DNA of 64,000 nucleotides from Planctomycetaceae bacterium (lineage in GTDB: Bacteria > Planctomycetota > PLA2): NCBI GenBank assembly GCA_011525755.1, contig WYBS01000091.1, forward strand, positions 6,922-70,921. The letters are read 5' to 3'. Under the pieces are notes generated by a model that saw only the letters and a list, made by a program, of their open reading frames with translations, was not told the DNA's origin and searched no databases. Within the stretch, counting starts at the first letter, position 1; every line of letters begins with the position of its first letter. A program made the translations under genes and the position numbers. Shown here one piece after another: positions 4,479 to 59,709 of the stretch.

Positions 4479-4589
4479 GGGTCGCGTAGGTTACCGGAGG
4501 GCGCCCGCTGTCGCGTCGTTTGACCCGCCCCTGGGCCGGGCGCCGTGTGCCCGGGCGGGTCCTCTCGGCGCGTGGCGGGCCTCGCGCCC

Positions 4590-4665: not shown

Positions 4666-4859
4666 CCGCGCGCGAGCGCCGTCGCCGGACGACCGGCCGG
4701 CGACCGGGAGCCCGCGGGCACGAGCATCCGTCGCCGAGGTGGGGACGGACCAAGTCCCCGCGGCAGAGCATCCGCCGTTTCCAACCATTCGCCCTTCCCC
4801 ATACGGCAGGGGTCCGACAGGTTCCCGGCAGCCGGGCCCGGCGGTACACTGGCGAGGCG

Positions 4860-6143: not shown

Positions 6144-6155
6144 CCGCCCGGCACG

Positions 6156-6845
6156 ATGCGGGAGGTCGGCGTCGTCCTCTGCCTCCTGTTCGCACTCGCC
6201 GGCTGCGCGCGACGCCGCGCCGAGCCCTACGTTGTCGACCGCACGCCGCTCGGAGCCGACGCTCGCCGCCACGGGGAGCGCGAGCTGCGGCGCATGCTCA
6301 AGGACCGCCCCGCCATGGGCCATGGCATCCGCGAAGGCGATGCGCTGTGGGAGTGGACCGTCGGCATGTTCGCCGGTCGCGGCAACGACAGGCCCGTTCC
6401 GTGGAGCGCAGCTCCGCCGCAACCCGGGTACGACGCGGACTGCCGCATGCCGCTCGACGGTTCTGCCGCGGTGATCCGAGTTCGCGCCGACACGGACGAC
6501 CTTGAGGTCCTATGGTCCCGCGCCGCGTACGAGCTGCACAACAGCCAGACCCGCGCCGCGAGCGAGCTGCTGGTTCGCGCCGCGATGGCGGGCTCCATCG
6601 ACAAACAGGCATACGTGGAGGGCGTGACCCGGTTGGAGTACGCCGCCCTCGGAAGGACCTGGGGGTTCTATCGCGCCATCTGGCGCCCGTGGGCGCATGA
6701 GCGTGGCATCCACACGGAGCGTCGGAAGTGGCCGTACCGGCTGCCATCGAGCTATGGGGCCTGGATCGGCGGGTTCGACGACCCGGACGGTTACCCTCGG
6801 GACTCGATCGGGGCGTACTACGACCGCGTCGTGGGGCGGCGATAG
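6156..6845 (+). CDS. hypothetical lipoprotein
   Basis: Lipobox 'LFALAGC'. It lies 12 nt after the S41 peptidase stop. High GC3. No recognisable domain. Confidence 0.5.
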   Translation: MREVGVVLCLLFALAGCARRRAEPYVVDRTPLGADARRHGERELRRMLKDRPAMGHGIREGDALWEWTVGMFAGRGNDRPVPWSAAPPQPGYDADCRMPLDGSAAVIRVRADTDDLEVLWSRAAYELHNSQTRAASELLVRAAMAGSIDKQAYVEGVTRLEYAALGRTWGFYRAIWRPWAHERGIHTERRKWPYRLPSSYGAWIGGFDDPDGYPRDSIGAYYDRVVGRR

Positions 6846-6928
6846 ACCGGCGCACGTGGCACCACCGCAGAGTCGCGCCCGCACGCGTGATGGCCGACCG
6901 GAGTCCTTGCGGATGTTAGAACTGGCGC

Positions 6929-7177
6929 ATGTCCACGGATGAGCTTCTTGCGACCATCCTCCGCCTCCCTCGCCACGAACGCGCGCGGATGGCCGAAGAG
7001 CTGCTGTCGAGCTTGGAGGAGCCTGAGGATGTCGTCGCGGCGGCTTGGGCCGAGGAGCTCCTGCGACGGAGCCGGGCCGTCGCAGAAGGGAAGGCGCAGA
7101 CCGTTCCTTGGGAGACCGCGCGCGCGCAGATCCTGAAGGATCTTGAGCAGAGACGTGCGGGTCGACCTCCATCCTGA
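6929..7177 (+). CDS. putative addiction-module antitoxin (TIGR02574-like 'addiction module component')
   Basis: 82 aa. 'ELLATILRLPRHERARMAEELLSSLEE...AWAEELLRRSRAVAEGKAQTVPWETA' is the typical pattern of this antitoxin family. It overlaps the toxin start. Confidence 0.7.
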   Translation: MSTDELLATILRLPRHERARMAEELLSSLEEPEDVVAAAWAEELLRRSRAVAEGKAQTVPWETARAQILKDLEQRRAGRPPS

Positions 7178-7477
7178 GGCGCTGAACGAACTTCATGCCG
7201 CTGCCGGCTGGTATGAGGAGCGGCGCGCCGGCCTCGGCGACGAGCTTGTCGCTGAGGTGTCGGCGGTGTTGACGCGGATCGCCGACGCGCCAGCCGCGTA
7301 CCCGCGGTGCCCGGGACGGAGAGTCCCGACGTGTCCATCCGCAGGGCACCCGTGCGGAGGTTCCCGTATCTGGTCGCTTTCGAGATGCACGCGGATCATG
7401 CGCTGGTCTTGGCCGTGGCGCATGCGAAGCGGCGACCGCTCTACTGGATTGGACGACTGCGCCGCGGGTCCGACTGA
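7143..7477 (+). pseudogene. ParE/RelE-family toxin interrupted by a frameshift
   Basis: The N-terminal part ('VDLHPEALNELHAAAGWY...LTRIADAPAAYP') is in frame (p-1)%3=2. The C-terminal part ('PGTESPDVSIRRAPVRRFPYLVAFEMHADHALVLAVAHAKRRPLYWIGRL*') is in frame 1, ending at the TGA at 7475-7477. The switch occurs in the CCCGGG run at about 7308-7316. Confidence 0.6.
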
Positions 7478-7500
7478 AGGTCGCGCCCGGCCGGCGCCCG

Positions 7501-7818
7501 CTACCGGAGAATGGCTCCCGCCGCGACCACGAACCACAGCGCGAGCCCGCACACGAACGCGATCGGGATCGAGTAGATCGTCGGCAGCAGGAAGAGGCCC
7601 TTCCGCGCGTCCACCGCGTGCACGGCGAGGTAGAGGCCCGGCGCGACCGCCAGCAGCGCGAAGACGACCGCGCCCCCCGGAGCCCCCAGGTATCGCGCCG
7701 CCGCGAAGGCCATCAGCGTCCAGTAGGCCGCGCCGCCCATCGCCGCGAGCCCGAACCGGCCGCGGAAGTAGATCCACGCAGAAGCCGCGTACGCAAGCGC
7801 CGCCAGGAGCAGGATCAT
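7501..7818 (-). CDS. small hypothetical membrane protein (105 aa)
   Basis: 'MILLLAALAYAASAWIYF...' gives about 3 TM helices. ATGA overlap with the upstream membrane protein. Confidence 0.5.
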   Translation of the reverse strand: MILLLAALAYAASAWIYFRGRFGLAAMGGAAYWTLMAFAAARYLGAPGGAVVFALLAVAPGLYLAVHAVDARKGLFLLPTIYSIPIAFVCGLALWFVVAAGAILR

Positions 7819-8384
7819 CGCCGGGGCGGCACGCGGGCCGCGCGCGGCGCGGGCGCCGGCGGGAGCCGCATTTTCGCGCGCACCTTCGCCGCGTAGGACT
7901 CGACCGTGTCCTCCTCGTCCCTGCGCACGCGCATCACGCGCCCGAGCTCGAGCACGAACGCCTCGTCCCCCTCGAGCGGGTAGTTGTGCGTCTCGATCAT
8001 GAAGCGGATGTTCTCGATGAACACCTTGTTGCTGAAGAAGCGCGCGATGCGGGAGAGCAGGAACGCGATCCCGAGCATCGCCACGACCGTGATGCCGATC
8101 ACGAGCCACCAGTTGTCGAAGCCCGACGGGCCCGGCTTCTCCCCGAGCGCCTGCACCTCGAGGTAGAGGAGCAGCGCGAACCCGAAGAAGCAGAACATGA
8201 ACCCGATCACCGAGTCGAGACGCTGGCTGATGTACTTCCGGAAGAAGCGGCTCCGGTTGACCTTGAACGAGAGCAGCTCGTGCAGGACGTACTTCGGCGT
8301 CTTGATCGAGATGCTCTTCGTGATGAAGAACGTGCCGAGGATCAGGCTGCAGATGGCGATGACGCGGATCGGGTCGGGCTGCAT
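7815..8384 (-). CDS. hypothetical membrane protein (189 aa)
   Basis: Hydrophobic helices ('ICSLILGTFFI', 'GFMFCFFGFALLLYL', 'WWLVIGITVVAMLGIAFLL'). Local GC is lower than surroundings (about 58%). Confidence 0.5.
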   Translation of the reverse strand: MQPDPIRVIAICSLILGTFFITKSISIKTPKYVLHELLSFKVNRSRFFRKYISQRLDSVIGFMFCFFGFALLLYLEVQALGEKPGPSGFDNWWLVIGITVVAMLGIAFLLSRIARFFSNKVFIENIRFMIETHNYPLEGDEAFVLELGRVMRVRRDEEDTVESYAAKVRAKMRLPPAPAPRAARVPPRR

Positions 8385-8428: not shown

Positions 8429-9676
8429 GTGCCGCAAGTCAACGTGGCCGCTAGAATTCAGCCTGTGAACGAGGTTCGCGCGCTCCTCTCCGCGCACGCG
8501 AGGCGCCGGGCCACCGCCCGCGCCCGCCGCTCCGCGGGGCGGATCGTCCTCCTCGGCGGCGCGGCCGTCGCGGTCCTCCTCTTCCTCGAGCGCGCGGGAT
8601 ACCTCCCGGTGCCGTGGGTGGGGGGGCTCGGGGGGGAGGACAAGGTCCTCTCCTGGGTGGTCGTCTCGATCGCGGGGCTGCTGCAGGGCGTCGTCCTCCT
8701 GGCGGCGCTCTTCCTGCTCGCGTTCCTCGTGCGCGCCGCGGGGCCGCCGTTCCTGAAGCCCGGGATCCCGGCCGTCGCGCGCGAGATCGACGCGCGGCTC
8801 TCGACGGACCGATTCTCCTCCGCGCTCGAGGCGACGGGCCCGCTCGCGGCGCTCGCAGGCCGGCGCGCCGCGGAGAAGCCGCCGCCCGGCGATCTCTTCG
8901 CGCTCCCTTCACGCCGCGGCGAGCGCTGGCTCGCCCGCCTCGTCGTGCTCCTCGTCCTCCTCGTCGCCGTCCTTCCCGGGAAGGCGCCCGCGCAGGAGGG
9001 GGGGCTCGCCACGCGCGAGGAGGGCGGTCGCGAGGAGGGCGACCTCGTGCTCAGGCTCATCGGGACGAAGGAGATCGTCGATCCGAAGCTCCCGGTGCCG
9101 GTGCAGGTGATCCTCGAATCCTCCGTCGCGCCCGCCGCCGACTTCACGTTCCCGATTTCCATACGGATCGACGGGCGGAAGGACGACCCGACCGGCGCGA
9201 CGCTCTTCCTCCCGGCGGGGGCGCCGGGGCAGGACGCGGTCGGGCTCGACCTCCGCCCGTGGGTCGAGGATCTCCCGCCCGGCGAGCACGTCGCCGTCGC
9301 CCTTGCGGGGATCCTCGAGAGCAACGAGTACCGGTTCCGGATCGAGGGGCCGTCGGGCGGCGAGAGCGAGAGCCCGGAGTCGAAGCCCCCCCCGGAGCCC
9401 CCCCCGGTGCCGCAGCCGCAGGGGGGCGGACCGCAGGATGCGAAGCCCAAGTTCGTGGAGCCGCTGGTCAAGGGAGAGGACCAGGTCACGAAGAAAGCGA
9501 AGGTGCCGATCGAGGTGCCCGAGGGCGGCGGCGCGCAGCAGGAGAAGCCGATCGAGGAGGCGTGGCCGGAGCTGGAGCGCCGCCGCGAGGAGGCGCTCAA
9601 CAGGCCGGGGCTCTCGCCCGCCGCGAGAAAGCTCGTGCGCGAGTACTTCGAGCGGCTGCGGCCGGAGGGGAAGTGA
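8429..9676 (+). CDS. membrane protein with N-terminal 2-TM domain and C-terminal 'LVREYFERLRP' motif (possibly DUF4175-like), first gene of a DUF58/BatA cluster
   Basis: GTG start. TM helices 'IVLLGGAAVAVLLFL' and 'VVVSIAGLLQGVVLLAALFLLAFLV'. The N-terminal domain resembles that of the 752-aa protein at 55707-57965. The C-terminus resembles the 253-aa protein at 51608-52369. Stop overlaps the DUF58 start (GTGA). Confidence 0.55.
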   Translation: MPQVNVAARIQPVNEVRALLSAHARRRATARARRSAGRIVLLGGAAVAVLLFLERAGYLPVPWVGGLGGEDKVLSWVVVSIAGLLQGVVLLAALFLLAFLVRAAGPPFLKPGIPAVAREIDARLSTDRFSSALEATGPLAALAGRRAAEKPPPGDLFALPSRRGERWLARLVVLLVLLVAVLPGKAPAQEGGLATREEGGREEGDLVLRLIGTKEIVDPKLPVPVQVILESSVAPAADFTFPISIRIDGRKDDPTGATLFLPAGAPGQDAVGLDLRPWVEDLPPGEHVAVALAGILESNEYRFRIEGPSGGESESPESKPPPEPPPVPQPQGGGPQDAKPKFVEPLVKGEDQVTKKAKVPIEVPEGGGAQQEKPIEEAWPELERRREEALNRPGLSPAARKLVREYFERLRPEGK

Positions 9677-10527
9677 TCTTCACCGCGCAGGAGATCGCGC
9701 AGCTCCGGCATCTCGAGCTCCTCGCGGCGAAGGTCGTGCGCGGGCAGCTCTCGGGCGAGCGCGCGATGCGGAAGCCCGGCCCCGGGAGCGGGTTCCGCGA
9801 GCACCGCGCCTACCACCCGGGCGACGCGCTGCGCACGGTCGACTGGCACGCGTACGCGCGCATGGACGCGCTCGTCGTGAAGGAGTTCGACGCGGAGGAG
9901 GCGCTCGACCTCGTGCTGTTGCAGGACTGCTCGGGCAGCATGGCGGGCGCCGCGGCGGCGTGCGCGGCGAAGGTGTGCGCGGCGCTCGGCGCGATCGCGC
10001 TCCAGCAGCTCGACCGCGTGCTCTGGATCCCGGTCGGCGGCGGGCGCGCGGCGGAGTCGTTCTCCGGGCGAGCGCGGCTCGCGGACCTGCTCGAGAAGGC
10101 GGACGCGGAGGCATCGGGGCGGACGAATCTCCTCGGCGCGGCGCGCGCGTCGCTGCCGCGGGCGGCTCGCGGCGGCGTCGCGTTCCTCGTCTCGGACTTC
10201 TTCGACCCCTCGAGCGCGACGGCCGCGCTCACGTTCCTCCTCGGGAGGCGCTATCGCGTGCACGCGATCCTCGTCGAGGACCGCGAGGCGCTGAAGCCGC
10301 CGCCGCTCGGCCGCGTGAGACTCGTGGACCGCGAGACGGGCGAGGCGAAGACGCTCGACCTCACCGACCAGACCGTCGCGGAGTACCGCAGGTCGCGCGA
10401 GGCGCGGATCGAGGGGCTCCGCCACTTCTGCCGGCGCGCGGGCGCGGGGTTCCTGCGCGTGCGAGCGGACCAGCCCTTCTTCGAGATCGTGCGGGCGGCG
10501 ATCGCCCGAGGGTGGCTCGGCCGGTGA
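9673..10527 (+). CDS. DUF58 domain protein
   Basis: 'REHRAYHPGDALRTVDWHAYARMDALVVKEFDAEE' is the DUF58 signature. GTGA overlaps on both sides. Confidence 0.8.
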   Translation: MIFTAQEIAQLRHLELLAAKVVRGQLSGERAMRKPGPGSGFREHRAYHPGDALRTVDWHAYARMDALVVKEFDAEEALDLVLLQDCSGSMAGAAAACAAKVCAALGAIALQQLDRVLWIPVGGGRAAESFSGRARLADLLEKADAEASGRTNLLGAARASLPRAARGGVAFLVSDFFDPSSATAALTFLLGRRYRVHAILVEDREALKPPPLGRVRLVDRETGEAKTLDLTDQTVAEYRRSREARIEGLRHFCRRAGAGFLRVRADQPFFEIVRAAIARGWLGR

Positions 10528-12209
10528 TCGAGTTCCTCGACCCCCTTGGGTTCCTCCTCGGCATCGCGGCGGCGGGCGTGCTCGCCGCGCACCTCCTGCG
10601 GCGGCGCGCGCGGAAGCACGTCGTGCCCTTCCTGCAGCTCTGGACGGCGACGCTCGGCCTCCATCCGGGCGGCTTCGGTGCCCGCGTGGCGCGGTGGCTC
10701 GACCTCGCGCTCGTGCTCCTCGCGTGCGCGCTGATCGCCTTGGCCGCGGGGGGGCCGCGGCTGCCGGGCACCCCCGACCGCGTGCGCGACCTGGTCCTCG
10801 TGCTCGACGGCGGCGTGTCGCTGCGCGCCGGGAACCGTCACGCGAATCTGCGCAAGGTCGCCGAGGCGGAGATCCGGCGCCGCGCGAAGGGGACGCGGTT
10901 CGCGGTGATCGGCGTCGCGGACGAGGGCGCGACGCTCTGGACGGGAGCCGACGTGGCGGGCGCGGTCGCCGCCGTGCGCGCGCACGGCGCCGGCTGGACC
11001 GACGCCCCGCGCGACGAGGCGCTGGAGCTCGCGCGCGCCGCTGCGGAGGGGCTCTTCGATCCCGACGTCGTGCTCGTCGCGCACCGGCGCGGCCGCGCGG
11101 AGGGCATGCGCCTGCGGACGGTCGTCGAGGAGGTCGTCAACGCGGGGATCGCGTCGCTCGCGGTGGTCGGCGATCCCGAGAGCGGCGGCTCCGTGGCGCG
11201 CCTTCTCCTGCGCGGGGATGGGATGGTCTCCGTGGAAGGGAAGGGGGAGGTCGAGGTCCGCGGGACGGCGGAGGTGGCGGTGCCTCTCCCGGCGTCCGGC
11301 GAGAAGACGATCGCGGTCAAGGCCGCGGGCGACGGGTTCGCGCCGGACGACGTCGCCTACCTCCTGCTCTCGGAGCCCCCGCGCCCCCGGTTGATCGTCG
11401 TCTCGGAGGGCGATCCGTCGCCCTTCCTCGTCGCCGCGCTCTTGGCGCTCGAGAGCACGGGGATGATCCAGGGCCCGCTCGACCGGACGACGCCCGCGCA
11501 CGCGGTCGAGGCGGCAGGGCGGTACGACCTGCTCGTGTTCGACCGGTGCGCGCCGCCGGAGCGGATCCCGGGAGCGCCGGCGCTCTACCTCGCGCCGCCG
11601 GGCGGGGCGCTGCCGTTCCGCATGGGCGACGAGGGGGACGCGTCGGCGCTCTTCGGGGTGGAGAAGGAGCACCCGCTGCTGCTCGGATTCGACTTCTCGC
11701 GCGTGGCGCCGCTCAGGGCGCGTGCGATCCTCGGGGGCGACGCGGTGGCGACGGCGGCGCCGGGGCCGGTGGTCGCCGCGTCGCGGGGCTGGGTGGCGCT
11801 CGGCTTCGACCCGGACCGGTCGCTCCTCGCGGCGTCGCCCGCGTACCCGCTGCTCCTCCGGAACGCGGTCGAGTACCTCGCGCCAACGGCGTCGGCGGAG
11901 CGGCCGGAGTTCTACGCGATCGGCGAGGCGTCGCCGGAGACGGGGCTCGCGGCGATCGAGGGGCACGGGACGATCCGGGTCGCCGGCCAGCTGCTCGGCC
12001 CGCCGGGCTTCTGGCGGATGCAGGGCGCGACGCTCGCGGTGAACTTCCTCGCGAAGGATCTCGACCTCGCGCCGCCGGACGAGCCGTCGGACCCGCTGCC
12101 CGACGTGGGGGAGCCCGGCGTGCCGGCGCGCCCGCTCGCGCCGCACTTCGCGGCCGCGGCGATCGTGCTCCTGCTGCTCGCATGGTGGGCGTTCTGGAGG
12201 ACGCCGTGA
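10524..12209 (+). CDS. BatA-like aerotolerance-regulator N-terminal domain protein with large extracytoplasmic region
   Basis: N-terminus 'IEFLDPLGFLLGIAAAGVLAAHLLRRRARKHVVPFLQLW' matches the BatA N-terminal double-TM pattern. C-terminal TM 'AAAIVLLLLAWWAF'. Confidence 0.7.
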   Translation: MIEFLDPLGFLLGIAAAGVLAAHLLRRRARKHVVPFLQLWTATLGLHPGGFGARVARWLDLALVLLACALIALAAGGPRLPGTPDRVRDLVLVLDGGVSLRAGNRHANLRKVAEAEIRRRAKGTRFAVIGVADEGATLWTGADVAGAVAAVRAHGAGWTDAPRDEALELARAAAEGLFDPDVVLVAHRRGRAEGMRLRTVVEEVVNAGIASLAVVGDPESGGSVARLLLRGDGMVSVEGKGEVEVRGTAEVAVPLPASGEKTIAVKAAGDGFAPDDVAYLLLSEPPRPRLIVVSEGDPSPFLVAALLALESTGMIQGPLDRTTPAHAVEAAGRYDLLVFDRCAPPERIPGAPALYLAPPGGALPFRMGDEGDASALFGVEKEHPLLLGFDFSRVAPLRARAILGGDAVATAAPGPVVAASRGWVALGFDPDRSLLAASPAYPLLLRNAVEYLAPTASAERPEFYAIGEASPETGLAAIEGHGTIRVAGQLLGPPGFWRMQGATLAVNFLAKDLDLAPPDEPSDPLPDVGEPGVPARPLAPHFAAAAIVLLLLAWWAFWRTP

Positions 12210-12583
12210 TCCGGCCGGCGAGACCGACGGACTGGGGGAGCCAGGTCTTCCGCACCGCGCTGCTGCTGGGAGGGTGCTCGGTCTTCGAGCGGGAGGGCGA
12301 GGTCCTCGGCTACGTGGGCCTCGACTACTCGTTCTACGGCAACGGGTTCGTGTCGCACCTCTTCGTGCGCGAGGACGCGCGGCGCGAGGGCATCGGCGAG
12401 GCGCTCCTGCGCCACGCGATGGCGTCGTGCCGGACGGAGAAGCTCTTCACGTCGACGAACCTGTCGAACGCGCCGATGCAGGCGCTGCTCGGGAAGCTCG
12501 GTTTCGAGCTGACCGGCGTGGTCCACAACCTCGACCGCGGCGACCCGGAGCTCGTGTACCTGCGCCGCGCGGCCACGGGGTAG
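12206..12583 (+). CDS. GNAT family N-acetyltransferase
   Basis: 'VIRPARPTDW' is a typical GNAT start (GTG in a GTGA overlap). 'LFVREDARREGIGEALLRHAM' is the acetyl-CoA-binding motif. Confidence 0.7.
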   Translation: MIRPARPTDWGSQVFRTALLLGGCSVFEREGEVLGYVGLDYSFYGNGFVSHLFVREDARREGIGEALLRHAMASCRTEKLFTSTNLSNAPMQALLGKLGFELTGVVHNLDRGDPELVYLRRAATG

Positions 12584-51607: not shown

Positions 51608-52369
51608 TTACCGGTCCCCCTCGGGTTCCTTCTCCGCCTCGCGCTTCGCGCGCTGCGCGGTGTACTCCTCGACGAGACGTCGGTACTGGATCGGGATGCG
51701 GCTGAAGTCGTTCCGGTTGATCCGCTCCTGGTCCTCCGGCGGCAGGCGGGCGATCCACGCCTCCACCCGCTTCACCTTCGCCGCCGCCGTGTCCTCGGGA
51801 GCCTGCGGCCGCCGTTGCCGGTCGAGCTGGCGCTTGTCCTTCTGTTCGTCCTTCTGCTGGCGCGGGGACCGGGGCTGGTGCTGCTTCCGGTCCTCTTCCT
51901 CGCGCTCGCGGAGCTGCTTCTCCCGCTCCTCGGCGGACTTCTTCTCCTTCGAGTCGGAGGACGTGCCCTGCATCTGCTGCTGGCGAGGGAGGGAGTTGAG
52001 CAGCTCCTCGAGCTGCTTGACCGTGAGGTCCGCCTTCTCCCGCTCGCTCCGGAGCATCTCCTCGAGGCGCTGCGAGATCTCGCCGTGCTTCGACTCGAGC
52101 TGTTGCCGCTGCTGCGCGCGCTCCTCGGCGCCGGCGCCGCCCTCGCCTCCCTGCTCGGGCGGGAGCAGCTTCTTCATCTCCTCCTCGACCTGCTTCTGCG
52201 CCTCGACCAGGCGGTCGACGCGCGTGATCTCGAGGAGGAGGCGCTCGCTCTCGCGCATGAGGCGGGAGATCTCGGCGACCTGCTGCCGGAGCTTCTCCTC
52301 GACGGATTCCTGCTGCGCCGCGGCGGTTGCCGCCGCGAGGAGCAGCGCGAGGAAGGTCTTTCGGATCAT
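51608..52369 (-). CDS. secreted coiled-coil protein (253 aa) with C-terminal 'RRLVEEY' motif
   Basis: Signal peptide 'MIRKTFLALLLAAATAAAQQ'. Highly charged E/R/Q/K-rich. The C-terminus resembles that of the 8429-9676 protein. ATGA overlap with the upstream giant gene. Confidence 0.55.
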   Translation of the reverse strand: MIRKTFLALLLAAATAAAQQESVEEKLRQQVAEISRLMRESERLLLEITRVDRLVEAQKQVEEEMKKLLPPEQGGEGGAGAEERAQQRQQLESKHGEISQRLEEMLRSEREKADLTVKQLEELLNSLPRQQQMQGTSSDSKEKKSAEEREKQLREREEEDRKQHQPRSPRQQKDEQKDKRQLDRQRRPQAPEDTAAAKVKRVEAWIARLPPEDQERINRNDFSRIPIQYRRLVEEYTAQRAKREAEKEPEGDR

Positions 52370-55300
52370 CGTCCGTCCTCCTTGTCGTCGCCGGGCGCGT
52401 CGCCGTTCCCGGCCCCGCCGCCCTCCTCCGGACCCGCGCCGCCGCCCTCGGGCGGCGTCTCGCCCCCGGCCCCGTGGCCCTCGTCGGAGGGCCCGAGGGG
52501 GTGGTCCTCCTCCGAGCCGAAGAGCGACTGGGAGAGCGAGTCGAAGAGCTCCGCGAGCGATCCCTGCTGGTGGTACATCCGCTCGACGCGCGCCTTGTCC
52601 GCGTCCGTCGGCGGCTCCTTGCCGAATTCGGGCCGGTTCGCGAAGAAGTTCTCGCGCTCCTGGTTGAGCGACTGCTGGAGCACGAGCATCATGCGGATCT
52701 CGGCGTCCGGCGGCACGAGCACCGGCTTGTTCTGCACGTCGGTCGGCCGCTCGCCCTGCTGCTGCTGTTGCTGCTGCTGCTGGCGACGGTCCTGGAGGTC
52801 GCGTTCGAGGCCCTTGATCGCGAGGTCGAACCGGCGCACGACGTCGCCGAGGAGCTCCTGCGGGAGCAGGCCGACCTCGCTCATCTCGAGCTGCGCGGCC
52901 GTCTCCTTCAGGTCCGCGGAGCAGCCCTTGAGGATGTAGGTGTAGACGACCGCACCCTCGCCCTCGACGGCCCCCGCCTTGTCCGCGACGTCGCGCTGGA
53001 GCGCCGAGACCTGGTCGATGAGCTTCTTGAGGTCGCCCCTCCGGATGTCGCGCGTCACGCGCCCGCGCTTCTTCACCTCGGCCTCGATCGCCATCAGCAT
53101 CTCGCGATGGCCCTGCGCGGCGCGGCGGAAGTTCCGGAGCTCCTCCTTGAGCTTGTAGAGCAGCTCGTGCTGGCGGAGCTGGCGGTAGCGGCGCTCCTCC
53201 TTGTCGAGCTGCTGCTGCGCCTGCTCGAGCGCCTTCTCCGCGCGCTCCTGCGAGCGCTCGGCCTCGTCCGGGTCGCCCTCCTCGAGGGCCTGACGCGCCT
53301 GCCGCATCGCGGCCTGCGCGTCCTGGAGCGATTCGACCCCCGGCTTCTGGTCCTGCCGGCGCAGCCGCTGCTCGAGCTTTTTCACCTGGTCCTCGAGCTC
53401 CGCCTGCCGCTCGCCGATCTTCTTCATCGCCTCGCGCCCGCCGGGCGTCGTGTCGCGGTGCGACTCGCGGAGGCCGTCGAGGCTCCGCTTCGCGGCATCG
53501 ACCTTCTCGTCGGCCTCGCGGCGGTCCTGCTCCGCGCTCTTCGGCAGCCCCTGCCGGAGCCGGCGCAGCGAGCGACGGAGGGCCTCCGTGGCCTCCTTCG
53601 TCCGCTCGGCGGCATCCTCGAGGCGGCCGCGGGAATCGCTCTCGCGGGCCGCGCGGGCCCCTTCCCCGAGCCCCTTCCCGATCTCCTCCGCGCGACGCGC
53701 GGCCGCCTCCGTGGCCTTCTCGATCCTCTGCAGCGCCTCGGCGTTCCTCTCGGCGGTCGCCTGCGCCTCGCGCTGCGCGTCGGCGACGAGCTTGTCGAGC
53801 TGCCGGATGACCTCGTCCTGTCGCTTCTGCGCGGCGACCGGGTCGTCGCGGCGGATCTCGTCGCGGGCGGCAGCAGCCTCGTTCGCGGCGGCCTCAAGCA
53901 CCTCGCGCTGCGCCTCGCCGGGCCGCTCCGCGAGGCCCTTCAGGTCGTCCGCCACGAGCCCCTGCCGCCCGGCGAGGTCCTCGCTCGGGCGCGTGGCCGC
54001 GGCGATCTCGCGCATCGCGCGCTCGGCCCGCTCGGCGGCGGCGCGCGCCCGCTCCTCCGCGCGGCCGGCCTGCCCCTCGCGGGCCGACGCGGCGGCCGCC
54101 TCGAGATCCTCCTTGGCGCGCTCGGCGGCGGCGCGGGCGGCGTCGGCGGCGGCCGCCATCCCGCCCTCCTTCGCCTTCGGGTGGTCGGCGAGCGCCTTGA
54201 GCCTCTCCGCGAGAGCCTCGGCGCGGGCTGCGGCCTCCTCTGCCTTCCGGTCCTCGCCCGCGGCAGGCCCTTGGGTCTCCTTCGACGCTCCGGCGAGCGC
54301 ATCGTGCGCGCGGCGGAGGGCGTCCGCGGACTTCCGGGCGGCGGCCTCGGACGGGCGCCCCTGCTCGAGCCCCTCGGCCGCCTTCCTGGACTCAGCGGCG
54401 GCCTCCTTCAGCGCGCTCTCCGCGGCCTCCGGGGCGCCGGCGACGGCGGATTCGGCCTCGCGAGCGACGCTCTCCTCGTCCCGCGCGAGCGTCTCCCTGG
54501 ACGGCGCGCGAGCGAGCGCCGCCTCGATCGCCTCGCGCGCCCGCTCCAGGGTGAGCGCCTGCGTGCCGAGCGCCTCCGCGATCCTGCGCAGCGCGTCCGC
54601 CTCGCCCTCGCGCGCTGCCGCCGCGGCCTTCTCGATCTCCTCCTTGGCCTTGGTCGTGTCCGCCGCGTCGCGCGCTCGCTCGAGCGCCTCGCGCGCGGCG
54701 ATCTCCCTGGCCACGGCGTCCTGGCGCCGGGCGAGCGCGTCGATGGCCCGTGCCTTCTCGCCGAGGGCGTTCCTCTTCGCGGCGGCCTCTTCGGCGGCCC
54801 GGGCATCCCGCGCGAGCGCCTCGAGCTCCGCGAGGGCCTCGTTCGCCTGAGGCGTGAGGGCGTCCGCCTCGCCGCGCCGGGCGCCGGTCTCCTGGCGCAG
54901 GCGCTGCTGGCGCGTGAGGAGATCCGCGAGCCGCGTGGCGCGCTCCCGCGCCGCGTCGATCTCCTTCAACTCCGCGGCGGCGCGCCGGTCCAGATCCTCG
55001 ATCTGCCTGCCGAGCTGGTCGAGTTCCTTCGCGCCCTTCCGCGCGGCCTCCTCGGCTGGCGTGCGGGCCACGGCGTCTTGCGTCTCCTTCCGGAGCTCGC
55101 GCTGGCGCCGCGTGAGGGCGTCGGCCTCGGCGCGCGCGTCGCGGAGCGCCGCCTCGCGGTCGCCGAGCTCCTTCAGGTCGTCCGGTCCCGTGAGGACGTG
55201 GAGGATCTCCTCGAGCGTTCCCACCACGCCCTGCCCGAGCTCCTGCACCTCCTCGGTCGCGTCGGGGCGCTCCTCGAGGGTGCGCGCCATCTGTTCCATC

Positions 55301-55608
55301 GCGCGCTGGAGGTTCACGAGCATCAGCTCGGTCTCCTCGCTCCCCGCGACGCCGCCCACCTTGATCTTCTGCTGGAGGATGATCGCGCGGACGCGTTCGA
55401 GGATCTCGGCCTTCTCCTGCTCGTTGCGGCGGCGCAGGTCCTCCTTGAGCACGTCCATCTTGTCGAGGAGGTCGCCGAGCTGCTCGGCCGCGCGCCTCTG
55501 GCGCGCCGCGAGCTTCTGGAGCGTCGAGCGCGCCTCCGGCTCCTGGCCGCCCGCGGGGAGCGCGAGCGCGCAGGCGAGGGCGAAGAGGAGGATCGGGGGG
55601 ATTCGCAT
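52366..55608 (-). CDS. giant secreted Ala/Glu/Arg-rich coiled-coil protein (1080 aa) with Q9 tract
   Basis: ATG at 55608 has a GGAGG RBS 7 nt upstream. Signal peptide 'MRIPPILLFALACALALPAG'. Low complexity. The (CTG)4TTG(CTG)4 run at 52756-52782 encodes the poly-Q. Confidence 0.6.
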   Translation of the reverse strand: MRIPPILLFALACALALPAGGQEPEARSTLQKLAARQRRAAEQLGDLLDKMDVLKEDLRRRNEQEKAEILERVRAIILQQKIKVGGVAGSEETELMLVNLQRAMEQMARTLEERPDATEEVQELGQGVVGTLEEILHVLTGPDDLKELGDREAALRDARAEADALTRRQRELRKETQDAVARTPAEEAARKGAKELDQLGRQIEDLDRRAAAELKEIDAARERATRLADLLTRQQRLRQETGARRGEADALTPQANEALAELEALARDARAAEEAAAKRNALGEKARAIDALARRQDAVAREIAAREALERARDAADTTKAKEEIEKAAAAAREGEADALRRIAEALGTQALTLERAREAIEAALARAPSRETLARDEESVAREAESAVAGAPEAAESALKEAAAESRKAAEGLEQGRPSEAAARKSADALRRAHDALAGASKETQGPAAGEDRKAEEAAARAEALAERLKALADHPKAKEGGMAAAADAARAAAERAKEDLEAAAASAREGQAGRAEERARAAAERAERAMREIAAATRPSEDLAGRQGLVADDLKGLAERPGEAQREVLEAAANEAAAARDEIRRDDPVAAQKRQDEVIRQLDKLVADAQREAQATAERNAEALQRIEKATEAAARRAEEIGKGLGEGARAARESDSRGRLEDAAERTKEATEALRRSLRRLRQGLPKSAEQDRREADEKVDAAKRSLDGLRESHRDTTPGGREAMKKIGERQAELEDQVKKLEQRLRRQDQKPGVESLQDAQAAMRQARQALEEGDPDEAERSQERAEKALEQAQQQLDKEERRYRQLRQHELLYKLKEELRNFRRAAQGHREMLMAIEAEVKKRGRVTRDIRRGDLKKLIDQVSALQRDVADKAGAVEGEGAVVYTYILKGCSADLKETAAQLEMSEVGLLPQELLGDVVRRFDLAIKGLERDLQDRRQQQQQQQQQGERPTDVQNKPVLVPPDAEIRMMLVLQQSLNQERENFFANRPEFGKEPPTDADKARVERMYHQQGSLAELFDSLSQSLFGSEEDHPLGPSDEGHGAGGETPPEGGGAGPEEGGGAGNGDAPGDDKEDGR

Positions 55609-55706: not shown

Positions 55707-57965
55707 CTACTTCTTCTCCTTGCGCAGCTCGTCCACGATGCCCTGCTCCGTCTCCTTGAGACCCTTGAACCAGCTGATGACCCCCTCGTAGCTCTCCCAC
55801 TCGCGCATGAGGCGCTCGAGCTTCTCGAGCCCGGCGAGGATCGTCCGCAGGGCGGCGTCGGCCTCGGCGAGGGCCGTGCCACGCTCCGCGGAGTCCGCGG
55901 CGGAGCCGGCGCGGCCGAGGGCGCGGTAGGTGCGCGGTCCCTCGTCCGTCGCGAGGTCGTCGGCGAGGAACGCCATCTCGAGCAGCTTCATCTGGGCGTC
56001 GCCGAGGCGGATGCGCTTCTCGACGAACGCGACCCAGAGCTCGCGGTAGAGCTCGCCGCGGAACGGCAACGCGCCGGCGTCGGACGGGGCGAGGAGGTGC
56101 CGCTCGTAGAACGGGAGGATCTGCTCGGCGGCCGAGCGGTCGTCGAGCCGGTTGAAGACGTACAGGTTGACGACGGTGCCCACGCGCGCGGCGAGCGTCT
56201 CGAGCTGCTCGAGGACCCGCCCCTGCGAGGCCTGGGCGAGGTCGTTCGCGTGCCGGAACTCCTGGGGCACGTCCGAGACGTCGCGCGCGAGCGTGAGCTT
56301 CTCGCCCGTCTCCCGCGCGCGACCGTCGGCGCGCCGCACCGTCTCGCGCAGCTCCTGCTGCCGCGCCTGGAGGATCTGCGCGAGCTCCTCGTCGCCGACC
56401 ACGTCGATACGCTGCTGGCTCCGCGTCTCGCGGGTCTTCCCGCCCGAGTCGAGCGCCTCGAGGGTATAGGTGAGCTTGTCGCCCTTGTCGATCAGCTTGC
56501 CGTCCTCGCGCAGGAGCCGCGCGAGGTCGATCGCGAAGATGCCGTGGAGCTCGGTGCCCGTGCGCGCCGCGGGGACGAGAGCGCGGATCGCGTCCCCGCC
56601 CGACTCGCCCGCCTTCACGCTGCGCGGGGACTCCTCGTTGACGCGGTACCGGAGCGTCACGCTCTCGACGCGGTAGTCGTCCTGGGCGGAGAACGCGACG
56701 AGGACGATGCCCCCTTCGAGGTACTCCGACTGGGCGGCCGGCGTCCGCACGCGGATCGACGGCGGCTGGTCCTGCACGACCTGGAGGAGGAACGTGTCCG
56801 CGCCCGGGTCATTCTCCTCGCCGTTCGTGCCGACGAGGCGCAGCGCGTACCGGAGGTTCTTCTCGGCCACGACGTCGAGGACCGCGAGGTCGGGCTCGAG
56901 GAGCTCCATCGGCCGGGGCTCCTCGGTGCCGAGGACGGCCGAGGCCTCGCGCAGCGGCAGGTTCGTGCGCACGCGGACCTTGAGCTTCGTCCCCTGCGGG
57001 ATTCGCTGTCCGCCCCCCTCGAGCTTCGCGGGGGGCCTCGCCAGGTAGTCGGGGTACGTCGCCTCCATCTCGATCCCGAGCACGGAGGGCGGCGTGAGCG
57101 CCTCGATCCCGTAGTTCTCCGCGCGATCGTCGTCCCCGCCGGTCACGGTGAACCGGTAGGAGGAGTAGACCTTCAGCGTGAACGCGAAGAGCGAGGGGTC
57201 GTCCGCCGAGGGCGTGAGGTCGATCTCGTCGGCCCGGCCGGGGCCGGCGGTCGTCTCCCAGAACGTGAAGCGGACGCGGTCGGGGACCGAGCCCTCCGCG
57301 CGCACGCGGAGGGTCGTCTCGTGCCCCAGCGTCACGCGACGCGAGACGCCCGGCTCCATCCCCTCGACGACGAGCACCGTGCGGCGCGGCCACGAGATCT
57401 CCCGCAGGAGCAGGGAGCGCTGCACGAAGATCCTCGCGAGGTCGGCGCGCGCGACCGCGGCCGTGCCGACGAGGAGCGCGACCGCTCCGGCCGCCGCCGC
57501 CCAGCGCGCCGGGATCCGCCCGGCCGCGACACGCCGGAAGGGGATCGTCGCGACCTCGCGCACCGTCTCCTCGACGACCGCGCGCATGAGCTCCCGCGAG
57601 TCCTCGTTCTCCGGGTCGTCGGCCGCGCTTGCGAAGGCGAGGCTCGAGCGCAGCCGGTCGTTCAGGCGCGGGTGCGCGCGCTCCACGCTCGCGGCGAGCG
57701 TCTCGTCGGGAAGCTTCCTGAGGAGCGGCCGGAGCAGGTTGCGGACGATCACGGTCCCCGCGCCGAGCAGGAGCATCAGGAGGAGCACCGCGCGGACGGA
57801 CAGCGGCAGGCGGAGCACGTAGTCGAGCCCGAAGAGGAGGGCGAGCGCCGCGCCGAGGAAGATCGCGAGGCGGCCCGCGCCCAGCACGAGCATGAGCCCG
57901 CGGACGCGCGTCCGCAGGCTCCCGAGGCCCCGGCGCAGCGGGCGGACGAGCTCCGCGAGGCTCAT
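55707..57965 (-). CDS. large membrane protein (752 aa), 2 N-terminal TM helices (possibly DUF4175-like)
   Basis: TMs 'LMLVLGAGRLAIFLGAALALLFGL' and 'AVLLLMLLLGAGTVIV'. The segment 'RNLLRPLLRKLPDETLAASVERAHPRLNDRLRSSL' parallels 'FLKPGIPAVAREIDARLSTDRFSSAL' of the 8429-9676 protein. ATGA overlap with the anti-sigma stop. Confidence 0.6.
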   Translation of the reverse strand: MSLAELVRPLRRGLGSLRTRVRGLMLVLGAGRLAIFLGAALALLFGLDYVLRLPLSVRAVLLLMLLLGAGTVIVRNLLRPLLRKLPDETLAASVERAHPRLNDRLRSSLAFASAADDPENEDSRELMRAVVEETVREVATIPFRRVAAGRIPARWAAAAGAVALLVGTAAVARADLARIFVQRSLLLREISWPRRTVLVVEGMEPGVSRRVTLGHETTLRVRAEGSVPDRVRFTFWETTAGPGRADEIDLTPSADDPSLFAFTLKVYSSYRFTVTGGDDDRAENYGIEALTPPSVLGIEMEATYPDYLARPPAKLEGGGQRIPQGTKLKVRVRTNLPLREASAVLGTEEPRPMELLEPDLAVLDVVAEKNLRYALRLVGTNGEENDPGADTFLLQVVQDQPPSIRVRTPAAQSEYLEGGIVLVAFSAQDDYRVESVTLRYRVNEESPRSVKAGESGGDAIRALVPAARTGTELHGIFAIDLARLLREDGKLIDKGDKLTYTLEALDSGGKTRETRSQQRIDVVGDEELAQILQARQQELRETVRRADGRARETGEKLTLARDVSDVPQEFRHANDLAQASQGRVLEQLETLAARVGTVVNLYVFNRLDDRSAAEQILPFYERHLLAPSDAGALPFRGELYRELWVAFVEKRIRLGDAQMKLLEMAFLADDLATDEGPRTYRALGRAGSAADSAERGTALAEADAALRTILAGLEKLERLMREWESYEGVISWFKGLKETEQGIVDELRKEKK

Positions 57966-58969
57966 CGGCGTGCCTCCGCGCGGACGCCTCCTCGCGGGTA
58001 CGAAACGAAAAGCGCCTCCCCATCCGTCACCGGACGCGGGAGGCGCAGGTCGAAGGTCCGCTCTGCCCCGGGCGCGAGCGGGAAGGGCTGGAAGTCGTCC
58101 GGCGCGAGGGGGAAATCGTGGCCCGCATAGCTCGCGAAGAAGAGCGGCTCGCCGCCCTTCGAGGGCGCGAGGTCGATGGGGTCGGGCATCTCGTTCCGCA
58201 GCGTGACCCGGATCGTCGAGGCGTCAAGGGTCCGGGCTTCGAGCGAGGGGCGGCGGAACCAGGAGCGGGGGGAGGGGGGCAGGGGGGGAGGGGGGGCGGT
58301 CGATGCGAAGAAGGCCTCGCCGGGGCCGGCGACGGCCTCCCGGCCTTGCCACGAGCATCGCACGTGGCCGGACTCCGTCCAGACGAACGTGTGCTCCCTC
58401 CGCTCGACGAGAAACGCGGTCCCGGTCGTCACCGCGACGAGGTCCCCGGCCGTCACGGAAAACCCCGACTGCTCCGGAGGAACCTCCAAAAAGACGCGGC
58501 CCGCGCCGAGCGCGAGCCGTGTCTTCGAGAGCAGCCGGATGTCCGTGCCGGCGTCCATCGTGATCGTGATGCCGTCCGCCGTGACGACGCGGGCCACGTC
58601 CGACGCCTCGTAGACGCCCGGCTCGCGCTCCGCGACGTGGCCGTGCACGCGCGTGAGGCCCGTGGCGCCCTGCGGCCACAGGAGCGCGAACACGATGAGC
58701 GCGGCGGCGGCCAGCGGCAGCCGGAAGCGGTGGAGGAGGGAACGCTGCCTCGGCGCGGGCTCCTCGATGCGTTCGCGGATCGAGGACCAGAGTGCCGGGG
58801 GAGGCTCGAGCCGGGGCGCCTTGTCATGGAGACGCATGTGGCGCTCGATCTCCCGGAGCTCCTTCGCGAGGTCCTTGTCGCTCGCGACCGCCGCCGCCAC
58901 GCGAGGCGCGTCGCCGGGAGGAAGCCCGCCGAGGGCGAAGGCGACGAGATCCTCCCGCGTGATGTCCAT
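57962..58969 (-). CDS. anti-sigma factor, FecR-domain
   Basis: N-terminal anti-sigma segment. TM 'LPLAAAALIVFALLW'. FecR-like 'TADGITITMDAGTDIRLL...GRVFLEV...TGTAFLVER'. Start abuts the sigma stop. Confidence 0.75.
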   Translation of the reverse strand: MDITREDLVAFALGGLPPGDAPRVAAAVASDKDLAKELREIERHMRLHDKAPRLEPPPALWSSIRERIEEPAPRQRSLLHRFRLPLAAAALIVFALLWPQGATGLTRVHGHVAEREPGVYEASDVARVVTADGITITMDAGTDIRLLSKTRLALGAGRVFLEVPPEQSGFSVTAGDLVAVTTGTAFLVERREHTFVWTESGHVRCSWQGREAVAGPGEAFFASTAPPPPLPPSPRSWFRRPSLEARTLDASTIRVTLRNEMPDPIDLAPSKGGEPLFFASYAGHDFPLAPDDFQPFPLAPGAERTFDLRLPRPVTDGEALFVSYPRGGVRAEARR

Positions 58970-59563
58970 TCACTCCTCCAGATACGATGCGAGCCGGTCT
59001 CGCAGCAGGCGTTCCGCCAGCGCCACCCGGCTCTTCACGGTCCCCACGGGGATGTCGAGGATCTGCGCGATCTCCGCGTAGGGGAGCTGCTGGTAGCGTG
59101 CGAGCACGAAGGCCGCGCGCAGCTTCTCCGATAGCCCGGCGACGGCGCGACCGACCGCCTCGGACAGCTCCTTCGCCCGCGCCCCGCCGAACGGCGACCC
59201 GTCGCCGCGCGCGTCGGGCACGAGCGAGAGCTGCGCCTGCGCCTCCTCGCCGCCGGCACCCGTCGCGAACGGGCGGCGCCGGATCTTCTCCCGCTCGTTG
59301 AACCAGAAGTTCTTCGCGATCTCGAAGAGCCAGGTCGACACCTTCCCGATGGGGCGGTAGGTCGCGCGGGCGCGCCAGACGCGGAGGAAGGTCTCCTGGA
59401 GGTAGTCCTCGGCCGCGATGCGGTCGAAGCACATCTGGTGGAAGAAGTTCAGGAGGGGGTGCGCGTAGCGGCCGTAGAGCAACTCGAAGGCCCTCACGTC
59501 GCCCGCTTGAACGCGGGCCATGAGCTCCTGGTCGGAACGGTCGTCGGAAATCCCACTGGCCAT
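58970..59563 (-). CDS. ECF-type RNA polymerase sigma-70 factor
   Basis: Region 2 'LLYGRYAHPLLNFFHQMC...DYLQETFLRVWR'. Region 4 'LARYQQLPYAEIAQILDIPVGTVKSRVALA'. Confidence 0.9.
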   Translation of the reverse strand: MASGISDDRSDQELMARVQAGDVRAFELLYGRYAHPLLNFFHQMCFDRIAAEDYLQETFLRVWRARATYRPIGKVSTWLFEIAKNFWFNEREKIRRRPFATGAGGEEAQAQLSLVPDARGDGSPFGGARAKELSEAVGRAVAGLSEKLRAAFVLARYQQLPYAEIAQILDIPVGTVKSRVALAERLLRDRLASYLEE

Positions 59564-59709
59564 ATAACCGCTCCGGTTCCCGGGGGTTCGGCGCGAGCCT
59601 AGCACCGGGCCGGGATACGCGCAAATGTCTGTACACCAAAGGCTTATGTCGTCCGGTCTACTGCGGGGGGCTCCGGGGGCCCGGCCTCGCGTGTCCGGCG
59701 CAAAGAGGC

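Follow-up and report, generated by a model that had tools for sequence, protein, structure and literature searches.

MoxR/VWA 'Bat-like' operons are widespread and mutants in them show envelope and stress phenotypes; we know of no mechanism for these systems. Described operons of the BatI type include batA-E of B. fragilis, with MoxR and DUF58 genes upstream, bb0170-bb0176 of Borrelia and RL3499-RL3502 of Rhizobium leguminosarum, and the phenotypes of the Rhizobium mutants suggest a function in envelope maintenance (PMC5700661). The locus described here lies in a 64-kb stretch of planctomycetal DNA (the window). It shares with the BatI operons a DUF58 gene and, probably, the gene for a BatA-type inner-membrane VWA protein that follows it, and an envelope- or stress-related role is presumed for those operons; unlike it, they also encode MoxR, a second VWA protein (BatB) and the TPR/SH3 proteins BatC, D and E, and no DUF4175-type gene has been described in them (PMC5700661). 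The window cluster has no second VWA gene, no TPR gene and no BatD/E.

A further system for comparison is found in a cultured organism, Gemmatirosa kalamazoonensis, whose plasmid 1 carries an operon with the order MoxR–DUF58–BatA/VWA–DUF4175 (Table 1). Pfam recognizes AAA_3 (200 bits), DUF58 (140 bits) and BatA together with VWA_2 in its first three products; the fourth, a DUF4175-like protein that ends ...PPGYRALVDEYFKALARGRQP, narrowly misses the DUF4175 cutoff (26.1 versus 27.3 bits). As in the window, the genes stand close together on one strand, the DUF58 protein has a MIDAS, and the DUF4175-type protein displays the same N-terminal module (N-module) and C-terminal ...YRALVDEYFKAL motif; a membrane protein combines BatA_N with VWA, as its counterpart in the window probably does. 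By contrast with the window, a MoxR AAA_3 ATPase heads the operon, and the BatA protein has an intact VWA domain with a weak GATase1_like signal, whereas the corresponding window protein, g3, has a degenerate MIDAS. Moreover, the DUF4175-type protein comes last in Gemmatirosa, where it has about 1250 aa and a coiled coil, whereas in the window it comes first, is 403 aa long and has none. A literature search on DUF4175 returned nothing relevant.

Because Gemmatirosa carries all four components in one operon, the first protein of the window cluster, g1, is best understood as a DUF4175 component in miniature. Judging from the sequence comparisons below, we think it likely that the triad g1–DUF58–BatA/VWA derives from the MoxR–DUF58–BatA/VWA–DUF4175 operon by reduction and reordering, that g1 has a paralogue in a 752-aa protein encoded about 45 kb away in the window, and that the latter belongs, with a 1080-aa and a 253-aa protein, to a second, expanded DUF4175-type system.

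Table 1. Position of the genes discussed, in window coordinates except for the Gemmatirosa operon
Feature	Position	Strand	Remarks
Four-gene chain g1-g2-g3-g4		+ (all)	g1, DUF58, BatA-type, GNAT
g1, miniature DUF4175-like inner-membrane protein (probable)	8465..9676	+	family, model and N-module homology
g2, DUF58 protein, 284 aa	9673..10527	+	PF01882
g3, BatA-type membrane protein, 561 aa	10524..12209	+	BatA_N, degenerate VWA
g4, small GNAT acetyltransferase, 125 aa	12206..12583	+	Acetyltransf_1
189-aa membrane protein	7815..8384	-	divergently transcribed; conserved neighbour of g1
105-aa membrane protein	7501..7818	-	overlaps 189-aa gene by 4 nt; conserved neighbour too
253-aa protein	51608..52369	-	own signal peptide, coiled coil, conserved C-terminus
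1080-aa coiled-coil protein	52366..55608	-	own signal peptide
752-aa protein	55707..57965	-	DUF4175-type N-terminal module and periplasmic domains
FecR-type anti-sigma factor	57962..58969	-	ATGA overlap with 752-aa gene
ECF sigma factor	58970..59680 (start codon approximate)	-	Sigma70_r2 and r4_2 domains
Gemmatirosa kalamazoonensis operon MoxR–DUF58–BatA/VWA–DUF4175	plasmid 1, NZ_CP007129.1, L018 8709-16868		cultured organism

The triad and the question of MoxR

An earlier note on this DNA had described four genes chained by GTGA overlaps, and all three stop/start overlaps were located (9673-9676, 10524-10527 and 12206-12209); the peptide strings that it quoted are likewise all present in the translated sequence. 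The cluster of four is, however, conserved only in part. The triad g1–DUF58–BatA/VWA is the conserved unit: it was seen in all related Planctomycetota loci of sufficient length, very distant family members included, with the order g1–DUF58–g3 in L004, in L007 to L014 and in the distant loci of P0226 and P0237, while the short contig L015 contains a g1-like–DUF58 pair. At the triad junctions of the related loci, the genes overlap by 1-4 nt according to gene-finder calls. The triad, probably translationally coupled, is an inner-membrane module found across a clade of uncultured Planctomycetota. The GNAT gene g4 (PF00583, 46.7 bits versus a cutoff of 20.7, E 4.5e-12), by contrast, lies outside this core and is a lineage-specific addition in close relatives, being found in L001-L003 and L007 alone, with no copy in L004, L005 or L009-L014. 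In the window, g3 is followed by the GNAT gene and then by a convergent Cys/Met-metabolism gene.

The second protein of the triad, g2, clearly scores as a DUF58 protein (100.2 bits versus a cutoff of 23.4, E 1.2e-28). It is VWA-like, with an intact MIDAS motif (D-C-S-G-S, T, D) whose residues are kept in 11 orthologues, and has neither a membrane helix nor a signal peptide. The third protein, g3, appears to consist of an N-terminal BatA domain with a double membrane helix, a VWA domain, a C-terminal half without a domain assignment and a C-terminal membrane anchor. On its own it falls slightly below the BatA_N cutoff (22.9 versus 25.9 bits) and has no NCBIfam match, but BatA_N is recognized in nine of nine orthologues (best E 1.6e-8) and VWA_2 in two of the nine; comparison with the Gemmatirosa BatA/VWA protein by hhalign gave a probability of 93.7% (E 1.9e-7). 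The DxSxS signature of the MIDAS has degenerated to DGGVS in the clade, whereas the distant orthologue in L005 has an intact DVSRS motif. In the PDB, nothing useful turned up for the sequences of g2 or of the g3 family, and a single-sequence structure model of g3 was unusable (pLDDT 42).

The cluster had also been said to lack a MoxR ATPase, and this holds true in cis. Pfam detected no MoxR/AAA_3 protein among the about 50 window proteins, a motif scan of the window for MoxR was negative, and the Gemmatirosa MoxR, used as a tblastn query at E<=1, found only itself, with no match in the window or in any of 16 related loci. The triad could nonetheless belong to an ordinary MoxR-dependent Bat-like system, canonical in its workings, whose ATPase gene is merely unlinked and lies elsewhere in the genome. 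We give this explanation an even chance: Planctomycetota genomes usually contain several MoxR genes, the remaining components all match those of the canonical Gemmatirosa operon, and g2, in addition to its intact MIDAS, shares 31% identity with the MoxR-linked DUF58 of Gemmatirosa (E 2.8e-17). What speaks against it is that MoxR is absent within about 10 kb of the triad in each of about 12 independent related loci, very distant ones included, which implies that the unlinking is ancient and stable. Note that an ancient, stable separation from MoxR is unusual for DUF58.

The membrane module and C-terminal motif of g1

The start codon of g1 is probably GTG 8465, as judged from its homologues, which gives a protein of 403 aa; the longest open reading frame starts at GTG 8429 and encodes 415 aa (residue numbers below refer to the 415-aa version). 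In the AF2 model (pLDDT 81), g1 consists, in this order, of membrane helices 1 and 2, a cytoplasmic three-helix insert (residues about 103-165), membrane helix 3, a periplasmic 7-strand beta-sandwich (206-305), a disordered Pro-rich linker of ~50 residues and a helical hairpin (375-409). The 415-aa protein with two N-terminal transmembrane helices that had been proposed earlier thus has to be revised to three membrane helices and, probably, 403 aa. The hairpin is highly conserved and ends with an R-x-L-V-x-x-Y-F motif, while the conserved cytoplasmic insert reads 'A..lD..L.TDRf.aALEa.GPl'. Homologues of g1 (n=53) were found in Planctomycetota MAGs, the complete ones being about 400 aa long; those members of the family that match confidently (E<1e-8) measure 390-545 aa, or are shorter fragments, and have no coiled coil. 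No Pfam family, DUF4175 included, matched g1 at E<=0.01, nor was there an NCBIfam match; distant g1-like proteins gave no Pfam match either. A Foldseek search of the PDB with the g1 model returned only generic FnIII/Ig-like sandwiches with a TM-score of about 0.2.

Despite the absence of a match to the model, g1 resembles Pfam DUF4175 (PF13779) in its N-terminal membrane module with a cytoplasmic 'A..(I/V)(E/D)......L.DRL..A(L/V)E' insert, and, of the DUF4175-type proteins, P0210 and the Gemmatirosa protein were checked for the C-terminal R-x-L-V-x-x-Y(F/Y) motif and both share it with g1. Unlike DUF4175 proteins, g1 is without the long coiled-coil/low-complexity centre and has less than half the usual length.

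The earlier note had matched the N-terminus of g1 to the 752-aa protein and its C-terminus to the 253-aa protein. Pairwise BLASTP does not bring out either likeness at a significant level (E 0.07 to 0.5, the N-terminal match to the 752-aa protein having E 0.07), and a search of all six-frame window ORFs by the core g1 family HMM, its filters disabled, recovered only g1 itself. Profile–profile comparison (hhalign) of the core family alone gave E 9e-4 for the N-terminus and E 0.029 for the C-terminus. The decisive N-terminal comparison was made with the g1 family extended by distant members from a representative search: this profile aligned with that of the 752-aa family over 154 columns with a probability of 95.9% and E 5.6e-9. 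It also matched an independent alignment of P0199-P0210 (96.8%, E 3.1e-10), P0210 alone (83%, E 8.4e-6) and the Gemmatirosa protein (63%, E 7.2e-5). In the controls, the reversed target gave E 6.7e-4, the column-shuffled target no better than 0.28 and an unrelated membrane-protein family 0.04; the corresponding scores were 39.9, 15.2 and 24.9, compared with 79.5 for the real alignment. The membrane helices therefore contribute to the score, as recognized by the E-value still reached by the reversed control, and the juxtamembrane segment alone gave E 0.007. On the strength of these profiles, the three membrane helices and the cytoplasmic helical insert that make up the N-module of g1 have homologous counterparts in the 752-aa and DUF4175-type proteins. 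The relationship is one of remote homology and not of composition, and, with the DUF4175 N-terminal membrane module in common, g1 and the 752-aa protein are paralogues.

The evidence is of a different order at the C-terminus, where the match of g1 to the 253-aa protein was marginal (hhalign, E 0.03-0.05) and an unbiased scan of 49 window proteins with the C-terminal profile ranked the 253-aa protein only third. The short motif itself is nevertheless conserved on both sides: R.L[VIL]..Y occurs twice in the 113,693 residues of the six-frame ORFs, at the tails of g1 and of the 253-aa protein, and is kept in 43/46 members of the g1 family and 63/86 members of the 253-aa family. When the g1 family was compared with P0210 and with the Gemmatirosa protein, the two best hhalign matches were the N-module and the last 18-28 residues. 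The motif thus appears to be common to both families and to the end of DUF4175-type proteins, a link that is not statistically secure.

Could the likeness of g1 to the 752-aa and 253-aa proteins be compositional or fortuitous, reflecting membrane helices and richness in Arg, Leu and Glu in two unrelated clusters? The BLASTP values, the failure of the core HMM to match anything else in the window, the reversed control and the third rank in the C-terminal scan would all fit, but the margin by which the N-module alignment outscores its controls, the recurrence of this result when the target is an independent alignment or either of two single DUF4175-type proteins, and the rarity and conservation of R.L[VIL]..Y would not. 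We regard this explanation as improbable and, as far as the N-module is concerned, the profile comparisons already disfavour it.

The trio of the sigma-factor cluster

The genes for the 752-, 1080- and 253-aa proteins (the trio) lie together downstream of the genes for an ECF sigma factor and a FecR-type anti-sigma factor, and the gene order of this cluster is the same in L016 (56% identity), the one relative in which the whole cluster was read. The coiled-coil gene does lie between the other two, as stated earlier, and encodes 1080 aa if started at ATG 55608. The N-terminus of its product reads MRIPPILLFALACALALPAGGQ, and the conserved C-terminus of the 253-aa protein ...EAWIARLPPEDQERINRNDFSRIPIQYRRLVEEYT...; most of the 88 homologues of the latter are 240-280 aa long. 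None of the three proteins has an NCBIfam match, but an NCBI entry 88% identical to the 752-aa protein is named 'DUF4175 domain-containing'.

The earlier note had further proposed that one ancestral protein is split in the sigma-factor-controlled cluster, its N- and C-terminal pieces residing on two proteins with the coiled-coil gene inserted between them. The idea is partly right, since the trio maps colinearly, in gene order, onto single-chain DUF4175-type proteins; what does not stand is an ancestral part for g1, which is a paralogue. One such chain, P0210, scores above the cutoff of Pfam DUF4175 (44.6 versus 27.3 bits). By hhalign, the 752-aa family matches P0210 with E 5.7e-23, P0207 with E 6.2e-40 and the Gemmatirosa protein with E 2.1e-26. 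P0207 (Posidoniimonas) is a single protein that spans both the 752-aa protein (residues 1-730, E 6e-40) and the 1080-aa protein, whose C-terminal third aligns with residues 847-1191 (probability 72%, E 3.3e-5, with a two-sequence profile). A middle part of the 1080-aa protein matches residues 604-720 of P0210 (E 0.0019). For the motif of the 253-aa protein, the match lies at the extreme C-terminus both in P0210 (E 0.019) and in the Gemmatirosa DUF4175-like protein (E 0.013). By eye, the 1080-aa protein also seemed to resemble P0206 and P0207 in its tail, but BLASTP did not pick this up. In both P0210 and the Gemmatirosa protein, one chain carries the N-module together with a coiled coil and the C-terminal motif. 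In L016, the trio genes are separate.

Taken to its full extent, the proposal makes g1 the unsplit ancestor from which the sigma-factor-controlled cluster arose by splitting and insertion of a coiled-coil gene. It draws on the presence of the N-module and the C-terminal motif on one chain in g1 and on two proteins flanking a coiled-coil gene in the cluster. However, the coiled coil is already part of the single chains P0210, P0207 and Gemmatirosa, onto which the trio maps; with E 1e-23 to 1e-40, the 752-aa family is far closer to these long proteins than to g1, which it matches with E 5.6e-9; and g1 differs from the 752-aa protein in its middle domains. Likewise, the 1080-aa and 253-aa proteins have separate signal peptides, and lengths are constant in the g1 architecture and in that of the trio across all relatives found, as they are in the 253-aa and 752-aa families across all homologues found. 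A descent of the cluster from g1 is accordingly very unlikely in our estimation.

A possible role for the triad, and its neighbourhood

In the reading that we prefer, that of a derivative of the MoxR–DUF58–BatA/VWA–DUF4175 operon, the DUF4175-type component would have shed its coiled coil and come to head an operon with no MoxR encoded nearby, and the trio would be a second, expanded DUF4175-type system whose parts are three separately exported proteins. The products of the triad may form one complex, in which the cytoplasmic DUF58 protein would dock via its MIDAS site onto the conserved insert of g1, the only cytoplasmic part of that protein, and/or onto a basic loop of g3. On the periplasmic side, the beta-sandwich, the Pro-rich linker and the conserved C-terminal hairpin of g1 could reach a partner in the envelope. 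By comparison with the Rhizobium Bat-like mutants, the module might serve envelope maintenance, with a MoxR encoded elsewhere or with none.

We consider rather doubtful the more far-reaching proposal that the triad is a truly MoxR-independent DUF58/VWA machine, with the miniature DUF4175 protein in the position and partner role of the ATPase, and that DUF4175-type proteins are modular, periplasm-spanning proteins that can be shrunk, or divided under ECF-sigma control. If this modular view were true, these proteins would be defined by the N-terminal three-helix membrane module together with the C-terminal R-x-L-V-x-x-Y-F motif, g1 being the shrunk form and the trio the form split into separately exported subunits.

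The comparison assigns a DUF4175-type protein to the same operon as MoxR–DUF58–BatA in Gemmatirosa and, on the preferred reading, to that of DUF58–BatA throughout the Planctomycetota clade, the whole of which would retain DUF58–BatA–DUF4175 without a linked ATPase. The same type of protein would then occur in miniature, single-chain and three-subunit forms, which offers testable handles on its indispensable parts, on the partners of the cytoplasmic insert and of the C-terminal motif, and on whether DUF58 is able to work without MoxR. We see in this a useful annotation and a source of hypotheses and not a new kind of system.

Three genes at 29.3-33.6 kb were tested as candidate paralogues and proved not to be. 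Upstream of the triad, the gene for the divergently transcribed 189-aa membrane protein, which has no Pfam match, adjoins g1 in L004 and L009-L014.

A conserved DUF58/BatA module without a linked MoxR

The gene map of the window (72% G+C), drawn from codon-position GC profiles, is clean and agrees with the earlier note in showing four forward-strand genes at 8429–12583, g1 to g4, linked at 9673, 10524 and 12206 by GTGA overlaps of stop and start codons. The start of g1 is probably GTG 8465 rather than 8429, because this is where the alignment of homologues places it. g2 has a conserved MIDAS motif (DxSxS, T, D); that of g3 is degenerate (DGGVS) within the window's clade and reads DVSRS in a distant orthologue (locus L005). 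BatA_N is matched by all nine g3 orthologues, and VWA_2 by two of the nine.

Coordinates of the features discussed, in window positions
Feature	Position	Strand	Description
S41 peptidase gene	4545–6143		
229-aa gene	6156–6845		no Pfam match
Antitoxin-like gene	6929–7177		'Unstab_antitox', PF09720
105-aa and 189-aa genes	7501–8384	−	overlapping; membrane proteins without family, divergent from g1
g1	8465–9676	+	403 aa from the probable start; no Pfam or NCBIfam match
g2	9673–10527	+	DUF58 (PF01882, 100 bits)
g3	10524–12209	+	BatA N-terminal domain match slightly under threshold
g4	12206–12583	+	GNAT
guaB and guaA	19730–22878		7.5 kb downstream of g1–g3
Kinase gene	38495–42136	−	1213-aa fusion of a Ser/Thr protein kinase with an AAA_16 (STAND-type) ATPase domain and with TPR repeats of MalT-like type
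253-aa gene	51608–52369	−	ECF-sigma cluster
1080-aa gene	52366–55608	−	ECF-sigma cluster; coiled coil
752-aa gene	55707–57965	−	ECF-sigma cluster
Flanks of the sigma cluster	50466–51554, 59710–60945, 60988–63996	−	two squalene-hopene cyclase/prenyltransferase-like proteins (alpha/alpha-toroid fold); 1002-aa PQQ_2/TPR protein

The absence of MoxR in cis, also remarked on earlier, held in every search: AAA_3/MoxR was absent from the ~50 predicted window proteins scanned with Pfam, a MoxR motif scan was negative, and tblastn with a genuine MoxR gave no match (E ≤ 1) in the window or any of 16 related loci.

The g1 family consists of proteins of ~400 aa from uncultured Planctomycetota (53 matches). 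The order g1, DUF58, g3 orthologue recurs at L004 and L007 to L014, nine related but independent loci. Seven of them (L004, L009–L014) have lpxB and two small, divergently transcribed membrane-protein genes (105 and 189 aa) upstream of g1, and most of the seven have an M48 peptidase gene downstream. An exhaustive profile search also returned distant members; those matched confidently (420–545 aa) all have the family's C-terminal architecture, and in most the N-terminal architecture agrees as well. Two of the distant loci (those of P0226 and P0237) read g1-like, DUF58, BatA + VWA_2, guaB, guaA, with 4-nt overlaps in the gene calls and no MoxR; the short contig of a third member, P0262, carries a g1-like gene and then DUF58. 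The DUF58/BatA module is conserved and MoxR-unlinked. GNAT is limited to the closest relatives and is therefore an add-on.

The 105-aa/189-aa pair, kept beside g1 in seven related loci, may be part of the same functional unit; the 189-aa gene is unusually low in G+C at its first and second codon positions (0.58 and 0.40). Since lpxB directly adjoins this pair in L004, the block at 4545–7500 that lies between them in the window looks like a lineage-specific insertion; it holds the S41 peptidase, 229-aa and antitoxin-like genes, the last overlapped by a downstream ORF without Pfam match. guaB and guaA directly follow the triad (g1–g2–g3) in the distant relative L005 (14489–17586) as at the P0237 locus and lie near it in the window, which points to a chromosomal neighbourhood of long-standing conservation.

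Relationship of g1 to the ECF-sigma cluster

The sigma cluster, ~45 kb away, comprises the ECF sigma, FecR-like anti-sigma, 752-aa, 1080-aa and 253-aa genes, an order kept in a relative at 56% identity (L016). The earlier note proposed that one ancestral protein is represented here by N- and C-terminal pieces on two proteins, with the coiled-coil gene inserted between them. BLASTP of g1 against the 752-aa and 253-aa proteins and an HMM search were negative, and profile–profile comparison with the core g1 family alone was weak. With the extended family, the N-terminal module of g1 (residues 16–181) aligns with 10–171 of the 752-aa family (probability 95.9%, E 5.6e-9), far ahead of the reversed target (E 6.7e-4), column-shuffled targets (E no better than 0.28) and an unrelated membrane-protein family (E 0.04); the g1 juxtamembrane segment by itself gave only E 0.007. 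The match recurred with N-termini of distant DUF4175-like proteins, aligned independently (96.8%, E 3.1e-10), and with P0210 alone (E 8.4e-6), a single-chain protein that passes Pfam DUF4175. A relative 88% identical to the 752-aa protein bears the NCBI name 'DUF4175 domain-containing'. The resemblance at the N-terminus is therefore genuine remote homology.

The C-terminal resemblance between g1 and the 253-aa protein is a short motif, R.L[VIL]..Y. Across the six-frame ORFs of the whole window it occurs only twice, in precisely these two tails, and it is kept in 43/46 g1-family, 63/86 253-aa-family and 0/58 752-aa-family members. The second-best hhalign match of the g1 family falls at the extreme C-terminus of P0210 (E 0.011) and of the Gemmatirosa DUF4175-like protein described below (E 0.017). 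Against this rare motif stand profile E-values of only 0.01 to 0.05 and the rank of the 253-aa protein, third among 49 window proteins scanned without bias, leaving this half of the proposal plausible but unproven.

The trio of 752-aa, 1080-aa and 253-aa proteins is colinear with single-chain DUF4175-type proteins: in P0207 (1193 aa) the 752-aa family maps to 1–730 (E 6e-40) and the 1080-aa pair to 847–1191 (E 3.3e-5), with no entry for the 253-aa family; in P0210 (1050 aa) the three map to 16–422 (E 6e-23), 604–720 (E 0.002) and 1031–1041 (E 0.019). Moreover, both the 1080-aa and the 253-aa protein carry a signal peptide of their own. Both observations support a DUF4175-type system taken apart, and not g1 as the ancestor. 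P0207 is Pla123a_21600 of Posidoniimonas polymericola, a cultured Pirellulales species; its single chain corresponds to the adjacent 752-aa and 1080-aa genes, a fusion or fission event inside the DUF4175-like family.

Read as the longest ORF (1144 aa, 52366–55800, from GTG 55800), the coiled-coil gene would share 94 nt with the end of the 752-aa gene; its actual start is almost certainly ATG 55608 (1080 aa), the first codon of the signal peptide. The genes flanking the cluster are the same in L016, so the toroid-fold and PQQ_2/TPR proteins may belong to its system.

A putative envelope complex and its Gemmatirosa counterpart

In the AlphaFold model of g1 (mean pLDDT 81), a three-helix insert separates the second and third of three membrane helices; a 7-strand beta-sandwich follows, then a disordered linker rich in Pro and, at the C-terminus, a helical hairpin. 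Foldseek returned only generic Ig/FnIII sandwiches. The conserved insert, in which D121 and T126 are nearly invariant, is the hallmark of the DUF4175 N-module. By the positive-inside rule, it would be cytoplasmic and everything beyond helix 3 periplasmic. The usual ligand of a MIDAS site is an acidic side chain supplied by a partner protein. The conserved overlaps imply that the triad proteins would be co-translated and form a stoichiometric complex, in which soluble DUF58 could reach just two cytoplasmic parts, the g1 insert and the basic loop in the hairpin of g3. On the periplasmic side, the sandwich, the linker and the highly conserved hairpin of g1 would touch g3 or an envelope component. 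In Borrelia, the BatA-type protein BB0173 is an inner-membrane protein whose VWA domain is periplasmic, and mutants of the equivalent Rhizobium operon are defective in envelope and cell shape (PMC5700661).

A comparator on Gemmatirosa kalamazoonensis plasmid 1, located by tblastn of P0210 against plasmid records, encodes in order MoxR (AAA_3, 200 bits), DUF58 (140 bits), a BatA + VWA_2 protein with a weak GATase1_like signal and a DUF4175-like protein of ~1250 aa ending in ...PPGYRALVDEYFKALARGRQP. This operon makes DUF4175-type proteins partners of MoxR–DUF58–BatA, the first contextual assignment of a DUF4175-like protein family. The window triad likewise has DUF58, BatA-type and DUF4175-type members, but it lacks MoxR, and its DUF4175-type member has shrunk and shifted to first position. 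The gene directly upstream of P0210 (L017, 2–1171; 4-nt overlap) gives weak GATase1_like, DUF4350 and ThuA matches, as the BatA protein of Gemmatirosa does in its C-terminal part. The unassigned C-terminal half of g3 may adopt this fold too.
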